From Paenibacillus sp. PCH8 (GTDB lineage: Bacteria; Bacillota; Bacilli; Paenibacillales; Paenibacillaceae), in NCBI RefSeq assembly GCF_002968835.1, contig NZ_PKQK01000008.1:8357-40356 (forward strand): DNA of 32,000 nucleotides, in the 5' to 3' direction. A model generated the notes under the pieces. That model searched no databases. It saw only the letters and a program-made list of their open reading frames with translations, and was not told where the DNA came from. Shown in pieces: positions 1,965-16,935 of this stretch. Every line of letters begins with the position of its first letter. The stretch's first letter is position 1. The translations under genes and the position numbers were made by a program.

Positions 1965-2687
1965 ATGAACCGGGCTTATTTTTGTGATGAACAAGTAGGT
2001 CAGATGCAAGCAACGTATGATGCAATCACAATGGTCAAGATGTTACATGAAGCTGGGATAGATGTCCGTAACAATCCGATTAATTATTATTGTTACGGAT
2101 GGGGTGATCAGGCGGATATCTTCCATGAGGCGATCAAAAGAATGTTGTTTGAAAGCTGCAACCAATCCTACTCGGACAATCTCCAAGGAGAGACTTGGGA
2201 GTATAGCATCGTATTTCCGGAAATTGAAGAAATGATGCTTCTATCCAATAATGACGAGGCAAATGAACTGTTAAAAAAGGTAGATATTCTTTTGCATTAT
2301 GAATGTCCAAATTTTGAAATGGGGATGAGCGGAGTTATAAAGGGAAAGAACATCTACATCAAGATAACAGGAAACTATGGGATATATTCGAATTTCTTAG
2401 GCAGAATTATTGAACTGAGAACTATCGTACTTGGGTTCATTGCACATAAGAAGAAGATGCTCATGCAAAAAATCCAAAATATTTTCATGATAAAAATGTT
2501 GTCTCTTAGTCGGCCAATACCATTAGGTATCTCAATTTGGGCACCTAATTCATTCGTATTCATACAACTTATGAAAACGTGTGGGGTAGATTTCTCCACC
2601 GAGATTGCAGAAAATCTCAGTCTAAAGAAGATGTGTTCTTTGTTAAGGGACGTTATAAAAATTGATGAAAAGGATGAGGTAGCATGA
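1965..2687 (+). CDS. Hypothetical protein, second gene of the operon
   Basis: AGGTGAGGG SD. Its stop overlaps the next start (ATGA at 2684-2687), which suggests translational coupling. It is the only open frame across this stretch. Confidence 0.55.
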   Translation: MNRAYFCDEQVGQMQATYDAITMVKMLHEAGIDVRNNPINYYCYGWGDQADIFHEAIKRMLFESCNQSYSDNLQGETWEYSIVFPEIEEMMLLSNNDEANELLKKVDILLHYECPNFEMGMSGVIKGKNIYIKITGNYGIYSNFLGRIIELRTIVLGFIAHKKKMLMQKIQNIFMIKMLSLSRPIPLGISIWAPNSFVFIQLMKTCGVDFSTEIAENLSLKKMCSLLRDVIKIDEKDEVA

Positions 2688-3415
2688 GTTTAATTCTAAC
2701 GGATAATAAAGCGGGTACTGTTGAGCATTCGCTAAGTATTAGTGAAGAAGGTAATGAATATGTAATCAGGTTGCGAGATCATAGCCTACCCTTGGTAGCT
2801 GAATTTCAGAACGGTATTAAGGTAGGAGAAGGTTTTTATACGAATGAGGATTTAGCTGAAGCATTATTACATGCTCAAAACCTCAGTGTCTTTAAAACAC
2901 CTATCCTGCCACGGGGTTGTATTTCATACCTGGAGAGTACATTTAAAACCTATTGTTTCTTCGAAGTTCCATCACATCGCAGAACTGTGTTTTACCATGA
3001 TGCGGTTATCGATGATGTGCCTTTTCCAAATTTAATTTTTGGTTATGAACTTAGGTCAAGAACAGATAGGTTTGAAATATGTAAGGTATTTGTGGGTGCT
3101 TTAGAGAAGGGCTTAACCAATGAAGAGTCGGAAGTATATTTTTATCCCTATACAAACGTAGATAGAACCTATGAAGTATGTTTAGGGTCATCTCAGTTAC
3201 CCCAAATCACACGCATTTCTCAATTATCGACAGTGCCAGAGGTTTTTTTCAATTCACAGAACTCTGACTGTTACTATGGTCATGCAAATGGTAGTGGGCT
3301 TACCTATAGGGAACTATTAGAGAAAGTCAAAGGCAAAGAATTCCTGGATAATTATCTGAAAACGACTGGCCTGACCCTCGCTGATTGGATAAGTGGACTG
3401 ACTTCTCTATCTTAG
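2684..3415 (+). CDS. E2/UBC-like protein (PRTRC protein B-like)
   Basis: YPYTNVDRTYEVCLGSS resembles the E2 catalytic signature (HPN-like Asn, then Cys about 8 residues later, followed by L/G). The Cys166 codon is at 3179-3181. VPFPNLIFGY and RRTVFYHD resemble segments I recall from PRTRC-B-type prokaryotic E2s. The gene sits immediately upstream of the JAB and E1 genes. Confidence 0.65.
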   Translation: MSLILTDNKAGTVEHSLSISEEGNEYVIRLRDHSLPLVAEFQNGIKVGEGFYTNEDLAEALLHAQNLSVFKTPILPRGCISYLESTFKTYCFFEVPSHRRTVFYHDAVIDDVPFPNLIFGYELRSRTDRFEICKVFVGALEKGLTNEESEVYFYPYTNVDRTYEVCLGSSQLPQITRISQLSTVPEVFFNSQNSDCYYGHANGSGLTYRELLEKVKGKEFLDNYLKTTGLTLADWISGLTSLS

Positions 3416-3462: not shown

Positions 3463-4758
3463 ATGTCTAACGAATTATTTGGTGGTTCTGATCTCTTTTC
3501 ATACTTTGGGGGAGGTTTCGTAGAGCCAACGAAAGTTGATAAGGAAGAAACACTAAAATCAGTGGGTAATACGATCGACATCACTAAACGCATTCAATCC
3601 AGAAGTAAATCCGACAAATCAATTGATGGACCTGGTGTAGACACATGTGAGGGCTCAACTCAGGATGAAATTAATGCTCTATCGGATGAAACACCTATAA
3701 GTGAGTCATCAGCCGATACTGCAGAACTAGGAGTAAAAAAAGATTCGTCCAAAAATGCAGATAGCAAAGATAAAAAGCCCGTCTTTACTAACACAACATA
3801 TATTTGCTACGCCGGTACGTCCAAGCTTTTAACTAAATATTTTGATATTGAAAAGATAGGGCTACTCAGTTTAGAGGATGTTCGCAAACAGTTAGAAAAA
3901 GACTTTCCTGAGATGTCAAAACAAAGAACGTTCATGAGTTTTGACGAGAAGAAGAATATAATAGTACCGGCCATCACAGGTGGGAAGAAGGGGGCTTTGC
4001 CCGTTTACTTCAACGATTCGAGAGCATACTTCTACTCTGCGAGCCAGCTCGTCGAGCATAAAGATAAGTATTCAATCTGTTACCTGGCTGCCAAAAACGG
4101 TTACTATGAGATCCGTGAGAATGGGATCGGGGTTTTTATCTCCAAATGCAACAAGGAAGAGTTAGAAGGATGGAGCAATGCTGATGAATTTTTTGCACAG
4201 CAGCCCAGGGCCCAAGAACTTGATTCTTGTCGCACCGGCTTTAAATCCAAGTTGCCGAAAATCCCTGAATCATTGGTACACCAACTAATATCATTTTTTA
4301 TGGACTATTCTGATAATGATGTAGAAGTGATGGGTGTATTCTACTGGGATACCAAGCAAGGTGTTTATCTATTGGATGTTCCTAATCAAAGTGTGTCGAA
4401 GACTTCAATCGATCAGCATTATACGAGTATGCCATATTGGATTATTAAAGTTTGTGAGATACATTCTCATAATAAAATGGAAGCATATTTCAGTTCTGTA
4501 GATAACGAAGATGAACTAGGCACCCATCTATATGGTGTAATAGGAAACTTAAAACATGCAAAAGGACTCATTCGGTTTGATATTCAAACACGAGCTGGTA
4601 TGGCAGGGAAATTTATTTCCTTGCTTCCTTCAGCACTTCTAGAGGGAGACTATGATAATCAAGAAGATTCATGGAACCTCATTAAAAAAGTGCAGTACCC
4701 TGCAGCCTGGCATGATCGTGTCTTGCTTGATCAGGTGGAGGTGGTTAACCATGATTAA
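3463..4758 (+). CDS. Fusion protein: disordered N-terminus, ubiquitin-like beta-grasp ending in an internal Gly-Gly, linker domain, then JAB/JAMM metalloprotease (PRTRC C + A-like)
   Basis: Complete JAMM motif EIHSHNKMEAYFSSVD (HxHx7Sx2D, nt 4462-4503) with an upstream Glu in DVEVMG. Residues about 106-174 (TYICYAG...LSLEDVRKQLEKDFPEM...NIIVPAITGG) have Ubl/ThiS-like length and pattern and end in GG (nt 3979-3984). GGAGGT SD. Confidence 0.75.
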   Translation: MSNELFGGSDLFSYFGGGFVEPTKVDKEETLKSVGNTIDITKRIQSRSKSDKSIDGPGVDTCEGSTQDEINALSDETPISESSADTAELGVKKDSSKNADSKDKKPVFTNTTYICYAGTSKLLTKYFDIEKIGLLSLEDVRKQLEKDFPEMSKQRTFMSFDEKKNIIVPAITGGKKGALPVYFNDSRAYFYSASQLVEHKDKYSICYLAAKNGYYEIRENGIGVFISKCNKEELEGWSNADEFFAQQPRAQELDSCRTGFKSKLPKIPESLVHQLISFFMDYSDNDVEVMGVFYWDTKQGVYLLDVPNQSVSKTSIDQHYTSMPYWIIKVCEIHSHNKMEAYFSSVDNEDELGTHLYGVIGNLKHAKGLIRFDIQTRAGMAGKFISLLPSALLEGDYDNQEDSWNLIKKVQYPAAWHDRVLLDQVEVVNHD

Positions 4759-5611
4759 TCTACTTGATTATCACGCTAAGAATGATGATTCAGAGGTTCG
4801 CCAATCACGGATACAGAGTATGTACTACTACATTGTAATTATTGGGGCCGGCGGTACCGGTGGCTATGCAGTTCAACGAATTACCAAAATGTTAAGTGCA
4901 TTTGCATCCGTAGATTCATTTCTTATGATTGCTGATCCGGATATGGTAGAGGAAAAGAATTTGCTACGACAGCCTTTCGTTAACCAGGATATAGGCGGAA
5001 AAAAGGCAAGTGTTCTTACCCAACGCTATGGTAGAACATACGGACTGAAAATCGGTTCTTATGTTGATAAATATGTGGAATCGGTTGAACAACTAGATCA
5101 GTTATTTTCATTAACTGATTTTCGTCACAAGACCGGGCAACACATTCAGAAGGTGTTAATCGGGGCAGTTGATAATGACTTTACGCGAAATGTAATGCAT
5201 GAGTACTTTATGCAGACTGATGACCTGATTTATATTGACGCAGGTATCGAAGGGGTCTTTTTACCATCAGGTGATAAACCAAAGAGTGAGTGGGGAGAAG
5301 AAGAAATAACAGATCATATGGAAAGCGGATATTCCGGGCAAGTGGTAGTGGGTCTGAGGAAAAATGGAACAGAAATCCTTGAACCACTTAATAGAATTTA
5401 CCCGATCGATGCAACGGATCTTATTGCGCCTTCACATAATTGTGGTCTGGAACCTTATCAACCTCAACGTATGATCGCAAATGAGATGGCAGCATTCCAT
5501 ATCTCAACGATTTTAAATGAGCTGTTGAGTACAAATACAATCATCGTACACTATGCAAACTTCAATGCTAGGACTGGCAGTTGCCGGCCACAGTACGTGC
5601 AAGAAGTATAG
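4751..5611 (+). CDS. ThiF/MoeB/E1-like adenylyltransferase
   Basis: Rossmann motif IIGAGGTGG and the DPDMVEEKNLLRQ motif (D.D.V...NL.RQ) typical of E1/ThiF. GGAGGTG SD 8 nt before the ATG at 4751. The start overlaps the upstream stop region. Confidence 0.85.
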   Translation: MINLLDYHAKNDDSEVRQSRIQSMYYYIVIIGAGGTGGYAVQRITKMLSAFASVDSFLMIADPDMVEEKNLLRQPFVNQDIGGKKASVLTQRYGRTYGLKIGSYVDKYVESVEQLDQLFSLTDFRHKTGQHIQKVLIGAVDNDFTRNVMHEYFMQTDDLIYIDAGIEGVFLPSGDKPKSEWGEEEITDHMESGYSGQVVVGLRKNGTEILEPLNRIYPIDATDLIAPSHNCGLEPYQPQRMIANEMAAFHISTILNELLSTNTIIVHYANFNARTGSCRPQYVQEV

Positions 5612-7254: not shown

Positions 7255-7295
7255 GATCAGCTTGACTTAAATGTTTTATGAATCTGGAGGATATT

Positions 7296-8024
7296 ATGAG
7301 CGAGATTTATTTTAACTATGATAGGTACTTTGAAGAAATTCTGGTTCGCCTTACTCATTATGATAGACTTGTAGATTTTGTTACAGATGAAGATGCCATA
7401 AGAGCAAATATTGAAAAAAACAAATGGTTGATGTTTTTCACAGGAAATGTAGAGCAAGAGATAAATAATCGAAAAAATGAATACACAAACACTTTAATTC
7501 TTTTTGGAAATCAAATGGTTGTATATTATTGCACGCTTATTGAATCTATGGTTGAGAATTTCTTCTTCACTATCTTTGCAAGTAAACCAGAAAGATTAAA
7601 CGAATTCTTTTCTTCCAAAGGCGAATTGAAAGATAATTTAGGTTTCTCTTTAAAGAAATTTTTGGAATCAGAATCCAAAGACGCATACGTTAATGATCTT
7701 TCAATAAAGGGAGCTAATCTATGTTTAGAAGGAGGTCCAAATAAATTTATTAAAAGAATTAAAGAACTAACAGGTTTCCAGATCTCGCAGGAAGTAAAGG
7801 AGATTCTGGATGACTTATATTATAAGCGTAACAGAATTATTCATAATAACGAGAAATTTGAAATTAGTACTGAAGACTTATATAAATATAGAGATGTGTT
7901 ATTTGAAATACTAGGTAAATTCCACGAGCAACTCACAAAATTAGGAGCTGAAATAAAAGATGATTATATAAAACCCTTTAGAGTTGAAGCTGTCAATACA
8001 GTAGGCAACAGCCACGCCCATTGA
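7296..8024 (+). CDS. HEPN-domain protein (RiboL-PSP/Abi-like)
   Basis: GGAGG SD before the ATG at 7296. C-terminal YYKRNRIIHNNE contains the HEPN Rx4H motif (RNRIIH, nt 7827-7844). AT-rich gene. Confidence 0.55.
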   Translation: MSEIYFNYDRYFEEILVRLTHYDRLVDFVTDEDAIRANIEKNKWLMFFTGNVEQEINNRKNEYTNTLILFGNQMVVYYCTLIESMVENFFFTIFASKPERLNEFFSSKGELKDNLGFSLKKFLESESKDAYVNDLSIKGANLCLEGGPNKFIKRIKELTGFQISQEVKEILDDLYYKRNRIIHNNEKFEISTEDLYKYRDVLFEILGKFHEQLTKLGAEIKDDYIKPFRVEAVNTVGNSHAH

Positions 8025-8636: not shown

Positions 8637-9647
8637 ATGAATAGTGAAGTGGTTAAACCAATTGATAGAAAGATGAGAAAGAGAATTTTTTTAAGTACTA
8701 TTGTTATCTTGGTTGTCGTGCTGGTAATTCCGTCATTGATTAAAATAGAATTGAGGACATATGAACTCCCTGGCAAACTTGACTCAGCACAAGAATTATT
8801 TCGCAACAAAACTCAAAGCTTTATTTATATTCCTGGTGTGTATGAGCAAAGAGTAAGTCGATTGTCCGATTATCTTATACTTAAAATTAGATATAGGGGT
8901 TTACTTCAAGAGTTTGAACAACCAAAACAACAACAGGAAACGCCCTATGTTTCCCCAGAAGATCCTCCAGGAAGGTTGGAATATGTTGATACAGAAGAAC
9001 TCAGAGATAGTCAACTTTTTGTTGCTATACCGGCATACATAGCAGGAAGTAATGAAGCGGACCGTCCAATTCAATACGGATTTGAGTTTGAAATTACAGG
9101 TATTCCATCAGAAGAAACTGAAGATTTATTAAACTCGACTATAGTAACAATAGATGGTTCCTCTCCTACACTTGAAAGAGTGGAGCAAATATTGGCTTCT
9201 AAAGCGCTTCACCGAATTGAAGGAAGATCCTATGATGGGAAAACTATTTTTTTAGATACTTCGCTTTACAATACTACAGTTTCTGCACACTACACAATAA
9301 AAGAATTATGGAAATTTAGTGACTTAATGAGATTTGACTTGGCCAATATTGAAGGTAATTCAGGTGGTGCCGCCACAGCCTATCAAGTCATGCTTAAACA
9401 ACAGGGAAGACCAAATGAACATGGGGAATTTGTTATTACTGGAGCTATTGAAGTTGAGGGTGATATTACAAGTGTTGGGGGAGTAAAAGCTAAAACATAT
9501 CTGGCCATTAAGAATTCAATTCCGGTCATGTTTGTCCCTAAGGGTATAAATTATACAGAAGCCATAGAAATGAAAAGTCTGATGAAGAGTAATATTGATA
9601 TCGTCCCAATTCAGAAGCTTGGTGATATTGAGGCATATTGGAAGTAA
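8637..9647 (+). CDS. Membrane-anchored Lon-type (S16) serine protease domain protein
   Basis: N-terminal TM helix IFLSTIVILVVVLVIPSLI. The C-terminus has GNSGGAATAY (Ser codon 9360-9362) and ITGAIEVEGDITSVGGVKAKTYLA...VMFVPKGN (Lys codon 9486-9488). These match the Lon proteolytic-domain pattern. Confidence 0.75.
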   Translation: MNSEVVKPIDRKMRKRIFLSTIVILVVVLVIPSLIKIELRTYELPGKLDSAQELFRNKTQSFIYIPGVYEQRVSRLSDYLILKIRYRGLLQEFEQPKQQQETPYVSPEDPPGRLEYVDTEELRDSQLFVAIPAYIAGSNEADRPIQYGFEFEITGIPSEETEDLLNSTIVTIDGSSPTLERVEQILASKALHRIEGRSYDGKTIFLDTSLYNTTVSAHYTIKELWKFSDLMRFDLANIEGNSGGAATAYQVMLKQQGRPNEHGEFVITGAIEVEGDITSVGGVKAKTYLAIKNSIPVMFVPKGINYTEAIEMKSLMKSNIDIVPIQKLGDIEAYWK

Positions 9648-10380: not shown

Positions 10381-10567
10381 TGTTTCCATTTTTTTTATAC
10401 CTAAAATGTAGAAATTTTATTTTTGAGCAACTTATATCTTGAGTTAACTTAGTATTTAATAGTGGGATATTTATAAAAGAAGCGAGGATTTCAATTTACT
10501 TCGATTCTTTCAATAAGTTGCCCATCTTGGTAGCTGTACTTTGATGAAATTTAAGGGGGATCAACAC

Positions 10568-11002
10568 ATGAAAGATGTTTTAGAACTGTTGGTTATGTTT
10601 GAAGAGGAAAAAGCTGAGAAAAACGTAACCGCGTACGTACCATCGCTACGTCTCGGAGTACATGGAGATACATTGGAGGAAGCTCGAACGAATGCGATTG
10701 AACTAATTGAGTTGGAACTGGAGGGGCGGCAGGAGCGGTTACCAGAGGATACAGCAGTCATTGAGACAATAAAGGGAAGTACAGGTGTGGATTTACTTGT
10801 TCTGTTTGAAGTGCTTGAAGAAGAAAATGATGTGACAGCTTACATTCCTGCATTGAGACTTGGTGTTAAAGGAACGACACTGTCTGAAGCACGCTCTAAC
10901 GCTGAAGACTTGATCAGGCTGGAATCTAAAAATCGCGTACATCCATATTCTCAAGAAACAGTAACGATCGATACTTTAAAGATAAAGGTTAAAGTTTCAT
11001 AA
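10568..11002 (+). CDS. Protein with two tandem HicB-like (UPF0150-type) domains
   Basis: AAGGGGGA SD before the ATG at 10568. It has two copies of the ...VTAY(V/I)P(S/A)LRLGV.G.TL.EAR.NA..LI.LE pattern, typical of the HicB antitoxin N-domain. Confidence 0.6.
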   Translation: MKDVLELLVMFEEEKAEKNVTAYVPSLRLGVHGDTLEEARTNAIELIELELEGRQERLPEDTAVIETIKGSTGVDLLVLFEVLEEENDVTAYIPALRLGVKGTTLSEARSNAEDLIRLESKNRVHPYSQETVTIDTLKIKVKVS

Positions 11003-12902: not shown

Positions 12903-13985
12903 AGACGGATTGTAATATGAAGTGCGACACCCACTGGAAATAAATAAAAAATGGCCCATGGCCGGATTCGTGTAGAATGAAGTCACCACAACAACCATTC
13001 ACACAAGGAGAATCCACCATGAGCTACACACATCTTAGCATAATCGAACGCAGCAAGCTAGAAATCCTCCACCAGCAAGGCAAAAGTTCACGAGCGATTG
13101 CCAAGGAGCTGGGCCGTCATCATTCGACCATCTGTCGTGAATTGGAACGCATGGTTTCATCGCAATCTTATCAGGCAGAGCATGCCCAGAGTGCTTATCG
13201 GGAACGACGTAAGGCTTCGGTCTCTCGTGGTAAATGGTCAGAAGCCTTAGGGGCTTCTTTTGCGGAAAAACTAGAGGCAACGTGGTCTCCAGAACAAATC
13301 ACAGAACGTTTCCGCGCCGAAGATCTACCTGCGGTTTCCTTTAAAACGATTTATCGCTGGATCTATGCAGGACGTCTTGTTCAAGGTAAATTACAAGTTT
13401 TACGTCACAAAGGGAAGCGTCGGAAACCCGCAGAAACTCGTGGTAAATTCACCATAGGCAGAACCATTTCAGATCGTCCAAAAGAGGTTCGTTCTCGTGA
13501 AACGTTTGGACACTGGGAATTGGATACCGTTGTATCGGGCCGCGGGAGAAGTAAAGGATGCGTAGCCACACTCATTGAACGCAAAACGCGTCTGTTTACC
13601 GCTGTTCTCATGACTGATCGTACCGCATTGTCCATGGAGATTGCGCTTGGTGTAGCCATATCACAGTACCCCAAAGGGACATTTCTCACGGCCACCGCTG
13701 ACCGTGGAAAAGAGTTTGCTTGCTACGCCAATCTGGAAATAACCCATGGCCTGCATGTTTATTTTGCTGACCCGTATTCATCCTGGCAACGCGGTTCCAA
13801 TGAGAATGGGAATGGATTACTTCGAGAGTTCCACCCCAAGGGCACCGATTTCGCTCAAGTAGAGGATGATGCTCTCGCCCACTGCCTTGATTTAATCAAT
13901 CACAGGCCAAGAAAATGCTTAGGTTGGAAAACTGCTCACGAATCTTTCATAGAGGAACTGTCGCACTTCGCTTTACAATCCGTCT
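12903..13985 (+). mobile_element. IS30-family insertion sequence (1083 bp)
   Basis: 27-bp terminal inverted repeats match 24/27: IRL AGACGGATTGTAATATGAAGTGCGACA (12903-12929) versus the reverse complement of 13959-13985. The element encodes a DDE transposase and is visibly more GC-rich than its flanks. Confidence 0.9.
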
Positions 13986-14119
13986 CAATAAAGCGGATAA
14001 TTGTTGTTACTGAAATTTGTGATCTTGCTAATAGGCTTAGGTTCTTTTTTGAAATTAATGAAGAGCACAGTGATCAAAGAAAAACATTATTTAGAAATTT
14101 AGCTATCACTAAAGATTAA
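13019..14119 (+). CDS. IS30-family DDE transposase
   Basis: AAGGAGAA SD before the ATG at 13019. N-terminal HTH (SSRAIAKELGRHHSTICRE), HWELDTV, TADRGKEF and YSSWQRGSNENGNGLLRE match IS30-family signatures. The ORF has no stop inside the IS and continues about 44 codons into flanking DNA. Confidence 0.9.
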   Translation: MSYTHLSIIERSKLEILHQQGKSSRAIAKELGRHHSTICRELERMVSSQSYQAEHAQSAYRERRKASVSRGKWSEALGASFAEKLEATWSPEQITERFRAEDLPAVSFKTIYRWIYAGRLVQGKLQVLRHKGKRRKPAETRGKFTIGRTISDRPKEVRSRETFGHWELDTVVSGRGRSKGCVATLIERKTRLFTAVLMTDRTALSMEIALGVAISQYPKGTFLTATADRGKEFACYANLEITHGLHVYFADPYSSWQRGSNENGNGLLREFHPKGTDFAQVEDDALAHCLDLINHRPRKCLGWKTAHESFIEELSHFALQSVSIKRIIVVTEICDLANRLRFFFEINEEHSDQRKTLFRNLAITKD

Positions 14120-14136
14120 TATAACAAGGAGAACTT

Positions 14137-15999
14137 ATGGAGATATTATATATTTGGTTTAATAATTATGGACCATTTCGACAGCAGGGCTTTCAATTGT
14201 GCGGGGATCTCCGTTTCAAATATGATTTTAATCATGAAGTACTATCAGTTACTAGGAATACGGATTATGTGCAGGATTTCTTTCGAGATCGTATGGCTCT
14301 GGAGAGCGAAACAGCCGTTGTAAAGAACATTACAGGTCTCATTGGTATTAATGGCGCAGGAAAGACAAGTCTACTCAATTATATCAAGCGTTATCTTGTT
14401 CGGGCTATGGGGCGAAAAATTAAAGAAGCACTGGTGGTGATTCGGAATGAGAAAGATGAGACGATTATTCTATATGATAAAAAAGTTATCAACTTAGAGT
14501 CTGTGAATCATGAAGGGCTACTTCATCACATTAAGATTTACAGTGGTACAGAAACCAATCAGCACTTACCGGATAGCTCGGTCATATACTTTTCAAATAT
14601 TTTTGATCACTCTCATGAGGAGACAGCAACAAACTATTACAATCTTTCAACTAACTACCTTATCCAAGGTGATTACCGTAGCAGGTTGGATTTACAGAAT
14701 GGGAATCCGAAGCAAAGTCCAATCGACGTTCATCGGGATGAAGACTTGTGCCGTCAGGTATTTTTCGTCTATGACTACCCTATTCGATTTCCAGAACAGG
14801 AACTGCCCTTCCGTTTGCCCAAGAATCTAGTGATTAAAATCCGAAACATCGATAGGGATGATTTGGGTAAGCTCGGGCAATTCGCAAATTTCTACTTAGA
14901 TCTTAATAAATATGTAACCGGTAAGATTGATGAAATATCATCACGTAACTCTGATAGGAAGTATAGCCCTAACCTGGATAGGAGAAGAGAAATATTTATA
15001 TTAACAACCTATCGCGCTATGATTTACTCTTTCTTGAAGGAAATAACTGTCTTTTCAAATCTTACGCTATTAGAGGAAGATGATCCGAATCTTTCTCTTA
15101 CAAATGTTCAGAGCGAACAAGCGACTTTCACCAATTATGTGAGGAATTTGTTTAATTCTACACTGAGTCGTTTTAATGATGATCCAACTATTAAATTGTG
15201 GCTTGATAATCTAATATTTATGGTAGATCATATATATGATTACTCGATATACTTAATACGTACAGCTAATACGCCAGATGAATATTCCCTCAAGTTACCA
15301 ATTATGCAAGGCGAAATCATGAAAAGCCCTTCATATGATTTCATAAATGTATATCGACGCTCGTACACTGTATTTCCATACCTTGATTTCGAATGGCAAC
15401 TCAGTTCAGGACAACGAGCGTTTTTAAATGTTTTCTCCAGATTGTATTCGAGAAATGACGGAGAAGTATTTGGCGACAACGTCAAGTTAACGAAACATGT
15501 TCTGCTACTAATTGATGAGGGAGAATTATACTTCCATCCAGAGTGGCAACGTCGGTTTATAGATACACTCATTCGATTCTTGTCCGTAGTCTATGGTTCT
15601 AAACGAAGAGTACAGATCCTGTTGACCTCGCATTCTCCATTCATACTGTCGGACTTACCCAACTATTGCGTCTCTTTACTCCAGCATAACGATAGACGGA
15701 CGAAAGTTAAAGATGGAACGGTAGAATTTAATACTCTTGCTGCTAATATCCACGATTTGCTGGCAAATGGCTTTTTCATGAAAGCAAACATTGGCGAATT
15801 CGCTCTGCAAAAGATTAATGACGCGATTACAAGGCTAAGGTCTCTTCAAGTTCACTCAGGTGTGGAAACTATTCGCTCACTCAGCAGTCGCGAAGAAGAA
15901 ATTGACTATCTCCGTTCCATAATCCAGCTTGTTGGTGAACCAATCATTGCTGGTCGGATGCTTGAGTTGTTAGATGAGCGGGACATAGATATGGAGTGA
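14137..15999 (+). CDS. ptuA: Septu-like PtuA (AAA15/21, ABC-type ATPase)
   Basis: AAGGAGAA SD. Walker A GINGAGKTS, Walker B-like LLLIDEGELYFHPEWQ, TSHSPF. Directly abuts an HNH gene. Confidence 0.75.
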   Translation: MEILYIWFNNYGPFRQQGFQLCGDLRFKYDFNHEVLSVTRNTDYVQDFFRDRMALESETAVVKNITGLIGINGAGKTSLLNYIKRYLVRAMGRKIKEALVVIRNEKDETIILYDKKVINLESVNHEGLLHHIKIYSGTETNQHLPDSSVIYFSNIFDHSHEETATNYYNLSTNYLIQGDYRSRLDLQNGNPKQSPIDVHRDEDLCRQVFFVYDYPIRFPEQELPFRLPKNLVIKIRNIDRDDLGKLGQFANFYLDLNKYVTGKIDEISSRNSDRKYSPNLDRRREIFILTTYRAMIYSFLKEITVFSNLTLLEEDDPNLSLTNVQSEQATFTNYVRNLFNSTLSRFNDDPTIKLWLDNLIFMVDHIYDYSIYLIRTANTPDEYSLKLPIMQGEIMKSPSYDFINVYRRSYTVFPYLDFEWQLSSGQRAFLNVFSRLYSRNDGEVFGDNVKLTKHVLLLIDEGELYFHPEWQRRFIDTLIRFLSVVYGSKRRVQILLTSHSPFILSDLPNYCVSLLQHNDRRTKVKDGTVEFNTLAANIHDLLANGFFMKANIGEFALQKINDAITRLRSLQVHSGVETIRSLSSREEEIDYLRSIIQLVGEPIIAGRMLELLDERDIDME

Positions 16000-16935
16000 A
16001 TGAATATGATTAATATTTACGAAGTGTCACAGCAAGTTCTAGCAGAAAGGCATTATGAGGCTGTTGTCGAAGAATTAATGAAGAAAGACTCTAAAAGCCC
16101 TGCGACTCTAGAAAAATGGTTCAAAGCATTCAATGTTAACTATACTTTGAAGCATATCATCACGGCGAGACCAGAAGATCTGAGGATAATGATGAGTAAG
16201 TGCAAATCAGACAAGTATCCCGAATGTATTCTGGAACTTTACGATATGTATGTGAAGAAGTTCTCAAAATCGGATCGATACATCGGTGACCGTAAACAAA
16301 AGTATAATGCAGTACAACTTATGAAGAGCCTAGAGATTAAGGTATGTCCTCTTTGTAACCGGAATTATATTAACAATGTAAAATCGAAGGGGCGGTTGGA
16401 AAAGCGTACAGGGCAGCTTGATCATTTTCATAATAAGTCATCTTACCCATTTCTTTCAATGTCATTCTTCAACTTAGTACCTGCCTGCTATGGGTGCAAT
16501 CATACGAAGGCTAGGTTTGAGCTTGAACAGACGCCCTACGCCGAGGTTGATTTGGATCCGCTCATTCGGTTTAGCGTGTCATTTAACAAAATTGAAGATA
16601 TATTTGATGAGCAACACTTAAGGGTTTCTCTAGACAATCATCCGTCCATTCAGCAGAATGTTGATGTTTTGGGTCTTTTAGAAACGTACACAGAGGAACA
16701 TAATGAAGATGCCTTTGCAGTTGTGAAGGCTTTCAAAAATTATAACGACGTTTGGCAGAATTCGATGATTGGAAATATAAAAGGACTGTTTAAAGATAAG
16801 GATCACTTGTCTGATATGTTATTAAGCGAATATATTGGTCTGAAGGATAGACTAAAGTCTAAGCCATTAGCGAAATTAAAAAAGGATATTTATGAGCAAC
16901 TGGAAGCGTACCAGCAGAGTAGTATATCAAGATAG
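16000..16935 (+). CDS. ptuB: Septu-like PtuB (HNH nuclease)
   Basis: CPLCNRNY...QLDHFHNKSSYPF...NLVPACYGCNHTK matches an HNH/TIGR02646-like pattern. The start is adjacent to the ptuA stop (TGAATG). Confidence 0.75.
   Translation: MNMINIYEVSQQVLAERHYEAVVEELMKKDSKSPATLEKWFKAFNVNYTLKHIITARPEDLRIMMSKCKSDKYPECILELYDMYVKKFSKSDRYIGDRKQKYNAVQLMKSLEIKVCPLCNRNYINNVKSKGRLEKRTGQLDHFHNKSSYPFLSMSFFNLVPACYGCNHTKARFELEQTPYAEVDLDPLIRFSVSFNKIEDIFDEQHLRVSLDNHPSIQQNVDVLGLLETYTEEHNEDAFAVVKAFKNYNDVWQNSMIGNIKGLFKDKDHLSDMLLSEYIGLKDRLKSKPLAKLKKDIYEQLEAYQQSSISR

Follow-up and report, generated by a model that had tools for sequence, protein, structure and literature searches.

A candidate ubiquitin-like modifier fused to a JAB protease in a plasmid-borne operon of Paenibacillus

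The operon and the architecture of its fusion protein

A 32,000-nucleotide (nt) stretch of DNA from Paenibacillus sp. PCH8, hereafter the window, carries a plasmid operon that encodes, in order on the + strand, a protein of 110 amino acids (aa), a 240-aa protein, an E2-like conjugating enzyme, a 431-aa fusion protein and a ThiF-type E1-like enzyme. We analysed the fusion protein (3463–4758, + strand), in which a candidate ubiquitin-like (Ubl) domain precedes a JAB protease. Its gene is carried on a Paenibacillus megaplasmid, with a GGAGG ribosome-binding site 8 nt upstream of the ATG. Circular plasmids of 150–250 kb from Paenibacillus, Thermobacillus and Cohnella encode the nearest relatives, and tblastn with the 431-aa query matched 129 plasmid records, eight of them over at least 80% of the query length. 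An assembly or frameshift artefact was rejected, as 41 close homologues of like architecture, and relatives on Bacillus, Lysinibacillus, Alkalihalophilus, Virgibacillus and Halobacillus plasmids, likewise encode the fusion in one reading frame.

The full-length structure was predicted by AlphaFold2 with the 41 homologues, giving a mean predicted local distance difference test score (pLDDT) of 80. The chain begins with a short motif, SDLFSYFG (residues 9–16; 3487–3510, + strand), whose residues L11, F12, Y14 and F15 change little or not at all among the 41 homologues; residues 10–15 were modelled as a short structured element with moderate confidence. A Lys/Glu/Ser/Asp-rich linker follows (residues 17–105; 3511–3777, + strand). 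It is probably disordered, as judged by its variable length and sequence among homologues and by pLDDT values below 50 over residues 26–66, 75–82 and 89–102. Family-wide, the linker contains 13.5% Lys and 13% Glu. A preliminary description of this DNA had proposed about 105 disordered N-terminal residues. The low pLDDT agrees with disorder, but the segment is not purely a disordered tail, given the conserved motif at its start.

The Ubl domain (residues 106–177; 3778–3993, + strand) was predicted to adopt a beta-beta-alpha-beta-beta order and ends ...IVPAITGGKKG. Strands were placed at residues 113–116 and 119–122, helices at 129–134 and 137–147, and strands at 156–161 and 166–171, with pLDDT values of ~88–94, whereas residues 174–178 formed a low-confidence linker (pLDDT <50). 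When the domain was modelled alone, the order of elements was unchanged (mean pLDDT 86, predicted template modelling score 0.71). Within the domain and its terminus, T112, Y116, R141, K142, E150, K153, R155, D161, P169, K176 and G177 are invariant in the 41 homologues, far beyond chance.

Downstream of the Ubl domain lies an alpha+beta subdomain (residues 178–254; 3994–4224, + strand), modelled as strands and a helix across residues ~182–250 with pLDDT values of 87–95. The preliminary description had placed a domain of about 100 aa before the JAMM core. A folded region is indeed predicted there, but it is not a separate domain: a hidden Markov model (HMM) of window residues 179–254 matched the N-terminal part of the JAB proteins that loci L010 and L012 encode as separate genes, which identifies it as the JAB protein's own N-terminal subdomain. 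This is JAB-N, as described for type 6d operons by Iyer 2006 (PMC1779556).

The remainder of the protein is a JAMM/MPN+ metalloprotease core (4225–4755, + strand). The residues E288 (4324–4326), H334 (4462–4464), H336 (4468–4470), S344 (4492–4494) and D347 (4501–4503) are invariant or nearly so, and they form the E...HxH...S..D signature on an MPN fold. The best NCBIfam match was PRTRC_A over residues 261–371 (E = 2.5e-8), and Pfam Prok-JAB matched the JAMM core with E = 0.002 (18.5 bits against a cut-off of 25); both were sub-threshold. Foldseek with the full model returned AMSH/Sst2, BilC bound to its Ubl (8tyx_B) and a Caldiarchaeum Rpn11 homologue, with E values of 3e-5 to 3e-4. In the predicted structure, the JAMM domain is thus closest to deubiquitinases, BilC among them.

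The genes on either side encode the enzymes of a conjugation pathway. The E2-like protein (2684–3415, + strand; Prok-E2_D / PRTRC_B-like) matched PF14460 above the curated cut-off (E = 7e-9) and TIGR03737 (PRTRC_B) under its cut-off (E = 3e-9). Its predicted catalytic residue is Cys166 (3179–3181), and a comparison of seven divergent operons, one of them the canonical Xanthomonas PRTRC cassette, showed P155, N158, V159 and C166 to be invariant. The E1-like adenylating enzyme (4751–5611, + strand; 286 aa, ThiF family, PRTRC_ThiF-like) begins 8 nt before the end of the JAB gene. It matched PF00899 above the cut-off (E = 1e-8) and TIGR03736 under it (E = 1e-18). A GxGGxG motif (4844–4861) and a conserved Cys231 (5441–5443) are present, and the invariant residues are common to the same seven operons.

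The Ubl family and its conserved terminus

To place the small domain in a family, a profile of residues 103–178 was searched against 1.84 billion cluster representatives, which yielded 276 proteins at E ≤ 1e-3. The best 145 of these 276 were re-aligned locally for counts of termini and architectures. Fusion to JAB is not rare in the family, as 63 of the best 145 representatives run on into a JAB domain, recognized by an HxH...S..D motif or a JAB HMM match. A further 29 are free-standing and stop exactly at the glycine equivalent to G177 (for example ...VIPVVTGGKKG, ...IFPIISGGKKG and ...VIPVLQARKKG); these are 43–180 aa long, the shortest being fragments from short contigs. Another 33 bear just 1–9 residues past this glycine, such as GR, CC, CR, GC or AGR.

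These counts bear on where the modifier ends. Codons 3979–3984 (+ strand) read ggt ggg, encoding the Gly-Gly (G173-G174) after which the preliminary description had expected processing; the codons are as it gave them, and the next four, aag aag ggg gct, encode K175, K176, G177 and A178. The two glycines are variable in the family and are not the predicted terminus. Among the 41 close homologues, residue 173 varies between G, K and L, and one (P0020) has A in place of G174; K176 and G177 are unchanged. Family-wide, both 'GG' positions are taken by A, G, S, K or L, with terminal pentamers such as AKKKG, GAKKG, AAKKG and SSRKG, among others, whereas the profile position equivalent to G177 is Gly in 136/140 members. 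No free-standing homologue was seen to end at the G174 equivalent. The invariant K176 and G177, together with the free-standing ends at the G177 equivalent, indicate that the conserved terminus is the KG at G177. On this comparison of sequences, the modifier is expected to end in its mature form at G177 (GGKKG|A) and not at G174, and the predicted scissile bond is G177|A178 (ggg gct; 3991–3996, + strand, with the G177 codon at 3991–3993), which also coincides with a gene boundary in locus L010. The mature end of a previously unmodelled Ubl family would thereby be fixed by comparative evidence.

That boundary is seen in operons where the modifier and the protease are separate genes. Loci L010 and L011 encode E2 (Prok-E2_D), a 104-aa Ubl, a 227-aa JAB protein and ThiF, and the stop codon of the Ubl gene shares bases with the JAB start codon (..AAA GGA TGA AA..) at the point matching G177|A178. 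In L012 and L013, a 189-aa Prok-JAB protein begins at the stop codon of a 102-aa Ubl (...SRKG-GR) and is followed by ThiF. L014 has the order dnaN ... Ubl (ending QARKKG), Fic, JAB and ThiF. Since free-standing members occur in the same E2-Ubl-JAB-E1 order, the fusion junction corresponds to a gene boundary, and from its sequence and gene order the 431-aa protein reads as a fusion of the modifier gene with the neighbouring protease gene of such an operon. Fused forms were also found on plasmids of the Bacillus cereus group, Lysinibacillus, Alkalihalophilus, Virgibacillus and Halobacillus, some of them without JAB-N. Locus L007 encodes a Ubl ending at Gly, ThiF and E2, with no JAB gene within 12 kb; this single case fits a JAB protein that the system can do without if there is nothing to process.

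Some relatives showed further variation. Six proteins of 470–612 aa (P0071, P0082, P0089, P0105, P0108 and P0129) have three or four tandem Ubl-like repeats before a final ...RKG and the JAB domain, and the KG motif ends the last repeat only. The sequence of P0061, a close relative of 233 aa, runs ...ITGGKRG before it enters the alternative frame of the window (window 3980–4165; LCPFTST...). This shift, at a homopolymer G-run (aag ggg gct), coincides exactly with the Ubl/JAB junction and is probably a sequencing error or mutation. Group II intron reverse transcriptases lie just downstream of, or within, the ThiF region in L001 (8482–10302), L004 (7997–9793) and L006 (8374–10305), and the annotated ThiF of P. 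lautus, at 135 aa, may be interrupted.

The domain behaves as the modifier of the system, in agreement with the preliminary description of a Ubl domain fused in cis to JAB. It is conserved and compact, it is flanked by E1 and E2 enzymes that keep their catalytic residues, and it is co-encoded with both in the window and in L007, L010–L014, L015 and L016. Family comparison gives it a conserved C-terminal Gly as the mature end. A profile search of every frame of the window found no second copy of the domain, consistent with the earlier remark that the operon has no free-standing Ubl gene. One open reading frame (ORF) of 115 aa (714–1061), the only operon-adjacent ORF ending in Gly (...AAAG), was considered as a free modifier and rejected, as it failed the domain profile.

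Existing models did not recognize the domain. Searches of residues 101–177, 175–266 and 1–106 against Pfam and NCBIfam at E ≤ 10 returned nothing relevant, the window Ubl domain gave no match to Pfam Prok_Ub (PF14454) even at E ≤ 10, and profile searches of PDB sequences with the domain gave chance-level matches only. The family is without an existing model in Pfam, NCBIfam, PHROGs or PADLOC.

A proposed maturation pathway and its alternatives

We consider it likely that the 431-aa protein is a Ubl precursor (residues 1–177) fused to JAB-N and JAMM (residues 178–431), which matures by a cut at G177|A178. An E1 enzyme needs a free C-terminal carboxylate and there is no second Ubl in the window, so that a cut by the JAMM domain at this bond is the simplest reading. 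That the fusion junction is where free-standing homologues end also argues that an activatable C-terminal Gly would have to be produced from the fused form by a cut. The JAMM domain would cut G177|A178 either in cis or in another copy of the protein, freeing a 177-aa modifier with a C-terminal glycine. The ThiF-type E1 would then adenylate G177 and transfer it, probably via Cys231, to Cys166 of E2, and E2 would join the modifier to a target amine. These E1 and E2 transfer steps are proposed from the conserved residues and from the chemistry of systems such as BilABCD. The freed JAB protein may also be able to reverse conjugation. Fusion would ensure 1:1 synthesis of modifier and protease and would make active modifier dependent on protease activity. 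The natural series of split and fused forms makes such protease-dependent maturation directly testable with one construct.

Several observations weigh against this pathway. The cleavage itself is something we infer from the comparison of homologues. In the AlphaFold2 model, about four low-confidence residues lie between G177 and the first JAB-N strand; with so short a spacer, cleavage in cis may be sterically difficult, and cleavage in trans is at least as likely. Foldseek of the isolated domain found no significant match (best E 0.3 in PDB and 0.24 in BFVD). Its weak matches included the beta-grasp-type domains of NBR1 (PB1), p47 (UBX) and protein L/G (B1), with E values of 0.3–1 and TM-scores of 0.3–0.47, none of them significant. 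Profile-profile comparison with Xanthomonas PRTRC_C (Prok_Ub) was likewise not significant with either narrow or broad profiles (hhalign probability <1%), though the aligned segment was topologically sensible. Of the preliminary assignment of residues 106–174 to a beta-grasp, the beta-beta-alpha-beta-beta order was borne out by AlphaFold2 at a pLDDT of ~90, but a fold match was not obtained. A beta-grasp fold of residues 106–177 is plausible, given the predicted order of secondary structure and the genomic context.

The want of any significant structural or profile match to a Ubl would suit a different reading, in which residues 106–177 are an unrelated small alpha/beta adaptor domain that precedes JAB by chance. 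We regard this as very improbable. The coding sequence of the domain consistently lies between or next to those of E2, JAB and E1; the conserved terminal Gly of the domain is the protein end in free forms, and short tails resembling pro-peptides occur; beta-beta-alpha-beta-beta is the order of a minimal beta-grasp; and 3/10 free-standing relatives gave weak matches to Prok_Ub at the corresponding region (~15 bits against a cut-off of 25, sub-threshold). A cut after G174 in a self-processing fusion, as the preliminary description had it, would leave a classical GG end, GG being the classical Ubl terminus. It accords with the near invariance of G174 in the 41 close homologues and with the fall in AlphaFold2 confidence from residue 174. 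Against this, several close homologues have K or L instead of G173, and P0020 has A instead of G174; family-wide, these positions range over A/G/S/K; K176 and G177 are invariant; and 29 free-standing homologues end three residues further on, with none seen at the G174 equivalent. Processing at G174 therefore appears very improbable.

It is also conceivable that the Ubl-like domain stays attached as a cis element, such as an autoinhibitory pseudo-substrate or docking module like the internal UBLs of eukaryotic ubiquitin-specific proteases (USPs), and that E1 and E2 act on something else. The inferred nature of the cleavage and the very short linker past G177 would be compatible with this, as would the stable retention of the fusion in many lineages. 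There is also a precedent in the type II cyclic-oligonucleotide-based antiphage signalling system (CBASS), in which E1/E2 enzymes conjugate the C-terminus of a non-Ubl protein. However, the window holds no alternative substrate ending in KG and no second copy of the domain. The KG terminus is as invariant in fused as in free forms, which would be unexpected if it were never exposed, and split and fused forms alternate among related operons of otherwise identical gene order. Permanent attachment is thus unlikely, and release of the modifier at G177|A178 is preferred.

The preliminary description had seen an unusual maturation logic in the fusion. Pre-processing by a protease at a Gly site has already been shown for BilC and BilA (PMC10557695), so release from a cis fusion would be a variant of known maturation and not a novelty. 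Pre-processing of BilA by BilC takes place after a conserved Gly (G97|A98). BilC also cleaves BilA-GFP, so that a large C-terminal fusion is tolerated, and it acts on BilA homologues with as many as nine further residues past the conserved Gly (PMC10557695).

Relation to known systems and to plasmid replication

Bacterial Ubl conjugation, in type II CBASS, Bil and Bub systems, has been shown biochemically only recently. The operon described here would work like Bil and PRTRC systems but, by curated thresholds, is a member of neither. It is a distant Bacillales relative of PRTRC and of the type 6d operons of Iyer, Burroughs & Aravind 2006 (PMC1779556), which comprise a Ubl (PRTRC_C, Prok_Ub), an alpha-helical protein, an E2 of family D, JAB-N+JAB and a ThiF-type E1, and whose listing already includes B. 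cereus and B. thuringiensis. PRTRC_B, PRTRC_A and PRTRC_ThiF are the best family matches of E2, JAB and E1, respectively. The order of small genes, E2, JAB and E1 is shared, JAB-N is present, and both kinds of operon are plasmid-borne beside replication genes such as dnaN and SSB. The scores, however, are far under the curated cut-offs of the PRTRC models (TIGR03734-03742), at 67.3 against 144.75 for ThiF, 33.7 against 101.8 for protein A and 36.6 against 131.45 for protein B, which indicates a distant relative rather than a member. Unlike PRTRC, the window lacks ParB and a separate PRTRC_C gene, and the modifier lies between E2 and JAB, fused to JAB, rather than upstream, and has a long N-terminal motif and linker. 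Neither dnaN nor parB was found inside the window, where tblastn with the Xanthomonas PRTRC ParB was also negative.

Two features of canonical Xanthomonas PRTRC proteins were noted in passing (L005 3339–3881 and 3893–4288, the entries for proteins E and C). The long tail of protein E is rich in Ala, Lys and Ser and ends ...SFELF. In PRTRC_C, an invariant ...VQTKG lies inside the chain, and a further ~60 aa, ending IDSFLIPMA, extend beyond it; this extension past QTKG suggests that precursor forms exist in canonical PRTRC too.

Other comparisons place the fusion among known precursors and multi-domain Ubls. The operon resembles BilABCD, especially Type II, in its four-part Ubl/E2/JAB/E1 composition, and the BilA tails of at most 9 aa match the 1–9 aa tails found here. 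It differs in that its E2 belongs to the Prok-E2_D family, its ThiF E1 is short (286 aa) and its Ubl is fused to the protease, and also in its setting, a plasmid replication region as opposed to a defence island. PADLOC gave no match for the Ubl-JAB protein or E2 and weak generic E1-E2 matches only for E1; PADLOC and PHROGs gave no system-level match for the operon proteins, and blastn of the operon against phage genomes found no match. Bub and Bil Ubls contain between one and three beta-grasp domains, differ in their N-terminal extensions and can be fused at the C-terminus to E2 (PMC11601603). The present family, with members of 3–4 tandem Ubl-like repeats and fusion to a pathway enzyme, is similar, except that the partner is the protease here and E2 there. 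In one E. coli prophage, the lambda-like phage tail assembly protein I, a Ubl, is fused to a JAB tail protein (Iyer 2006, PMC1779556). That fusion differs in belonging to phage tail assembly, without E1 or E2, in a single prophage and with an unrelated Ubl family. In the literature consulted, we found no description of a widespread Ubl fused to its own JAB protease inside an E1/E2 operon.

Eukaryotic polyubiquitin, ubiquitin-ribosomal protein fusions and sulfur-carrier precursors such as QbsE/QbsD offer a further parallel, being C-terminally extended precursors in which a protease exposes the terminal Gly. In contrast to these, the fusion partner here is the presumed processing protease itself.

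The N-terminal motif may give some indication of the target. The family consensus Q-[LM]-[DNS]-[LI]-F-[SDG]-[LM]-F-G, followed by a Lys/Glu-rich linker, occurs in nearly all members (P0057-P0201), with examples such as QLDLF, QMSLF and QTDIF; the window copy, GSDLFSYFG, is a degenerate form without the Gln. Within the first 60 aa, [LIMF]F was present in 123/133 members, against 43 expected from shuffles, and Q..[LIMF]F in 41/133, against 1.6 expected. By sequence, the consensus resembles QL[SD]LF, the bacterial beta-sliding-clamp-binding pentapeptide that Dalrymple et al. reportedly described in 2001, and this hints at clamp binding. In plasmids of B. paranthracis, Virgibacillus and Halobacillus, and likewise in the canonical PRTRC cassette of Xanthomonas, a plasmid-borne dnaN lies directly upstream of the operon (L005 56–1180, L006 11–1021, L015 4986–6110 and L016 5170–6300). 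In the L014 contig, dnaN (974–2095) is ~3 kb upstream of the operon, across an IS605 insertion, and dnaX or SSB genes are nearby in Lysinibacillus (L003) and C. perfringens (L017) plasmids.

We tentatively raise the possibility of a clamp-tethered modifier, though it is rather doubtful on these sequence patterns. The motif would bind the clamp, the linker would tether the Ubl, and E1 and E2 would modify the clamp or clamp-bound replication or repair proteins. The clamp would often be encoded by the plasmid itself, directly upstream, and fusion to JAB would gate the release of active modifier. If so, the system would be a bacterial counterpart, borne on mobile elements, of the ubiquitylation and SUMOylation of PCNA. 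We found nothing in a literature search that links a bacterial Ubl to the sliding clamp, and to our knowledge plasmid PRTRC-type systems have no known function or target; a link to the replisome, if true, would be the first function for these widespread cassettes. The clamp-like motif, with dnaN adjoining related operons, is a concrete lead to the target.

The first two genes of the operon are also conserved. The 110-aa gene (1600–1932, + strand) is kept upstream of E2 in Paenibacillus plasmids. Its product matched the P. lautus counterpart (BLASTP E = 1e-19) and the small gene directly after dnaN in Virgibacillus (BLASTP E = 1.8e-6), with no match in Pfam or NCBIfam. It was considered by position as a PRTRC_C equivalent and rejected, as it has no terminal Gly and no profile match. 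Its C-terminus is acidic and ends ...EDNEFF. An acidic run and hydrophobic dipeptide also end the products of other first genes (EVQFF, EDEIFI, DDDFI, DEDVFI), recalling the SSB tail DDDIPF; such ends occur, besides the window gene, in L001 (4138–4494), L006 (1034–1363), L015 (6219–6560) and L016 (6362–6691). The 240-aa gene (1965–2687, + strand) is syntenic in L001 and L002, and its product had no significant family match in Pfam, NCBIfam, PADLOC or PHROGs. From gene order, it may be equivalent to the 'alpha-helical protein' of Iyer operon type 6d.

Outside the operon, the window contains several genes of possible interest. Just downstream, a RiboL-PSP-type HEPN protein (7278–8024) and a protein with a Lon-protease C-terminal (S16) domain (8637–9647) may form a defence or toxin module. 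An IS30-like transposase (HTH_38 + rve) is encoded at 12977–14119, in a stretch with a G+C content of 0.48 compared with ~0.37 for the rest of the window. A 620-aa AAA_21/AAA_15 (AbiEii-like) ATPase (14137–15999), directly followed by an unannotated 311-aa gene (16000–16935), may be a two-gene defence system. Finally, a 153-aa ORF (10541–11002) has an internal tandem duplication (...VTAYVPSLRLGVHGDTLEEARTNA... and ...VTAYIPALRLGVKGTTLSEARSNA...), and its syntenic counterparts in related plasmids are annotated as HicB-family antitoxins.

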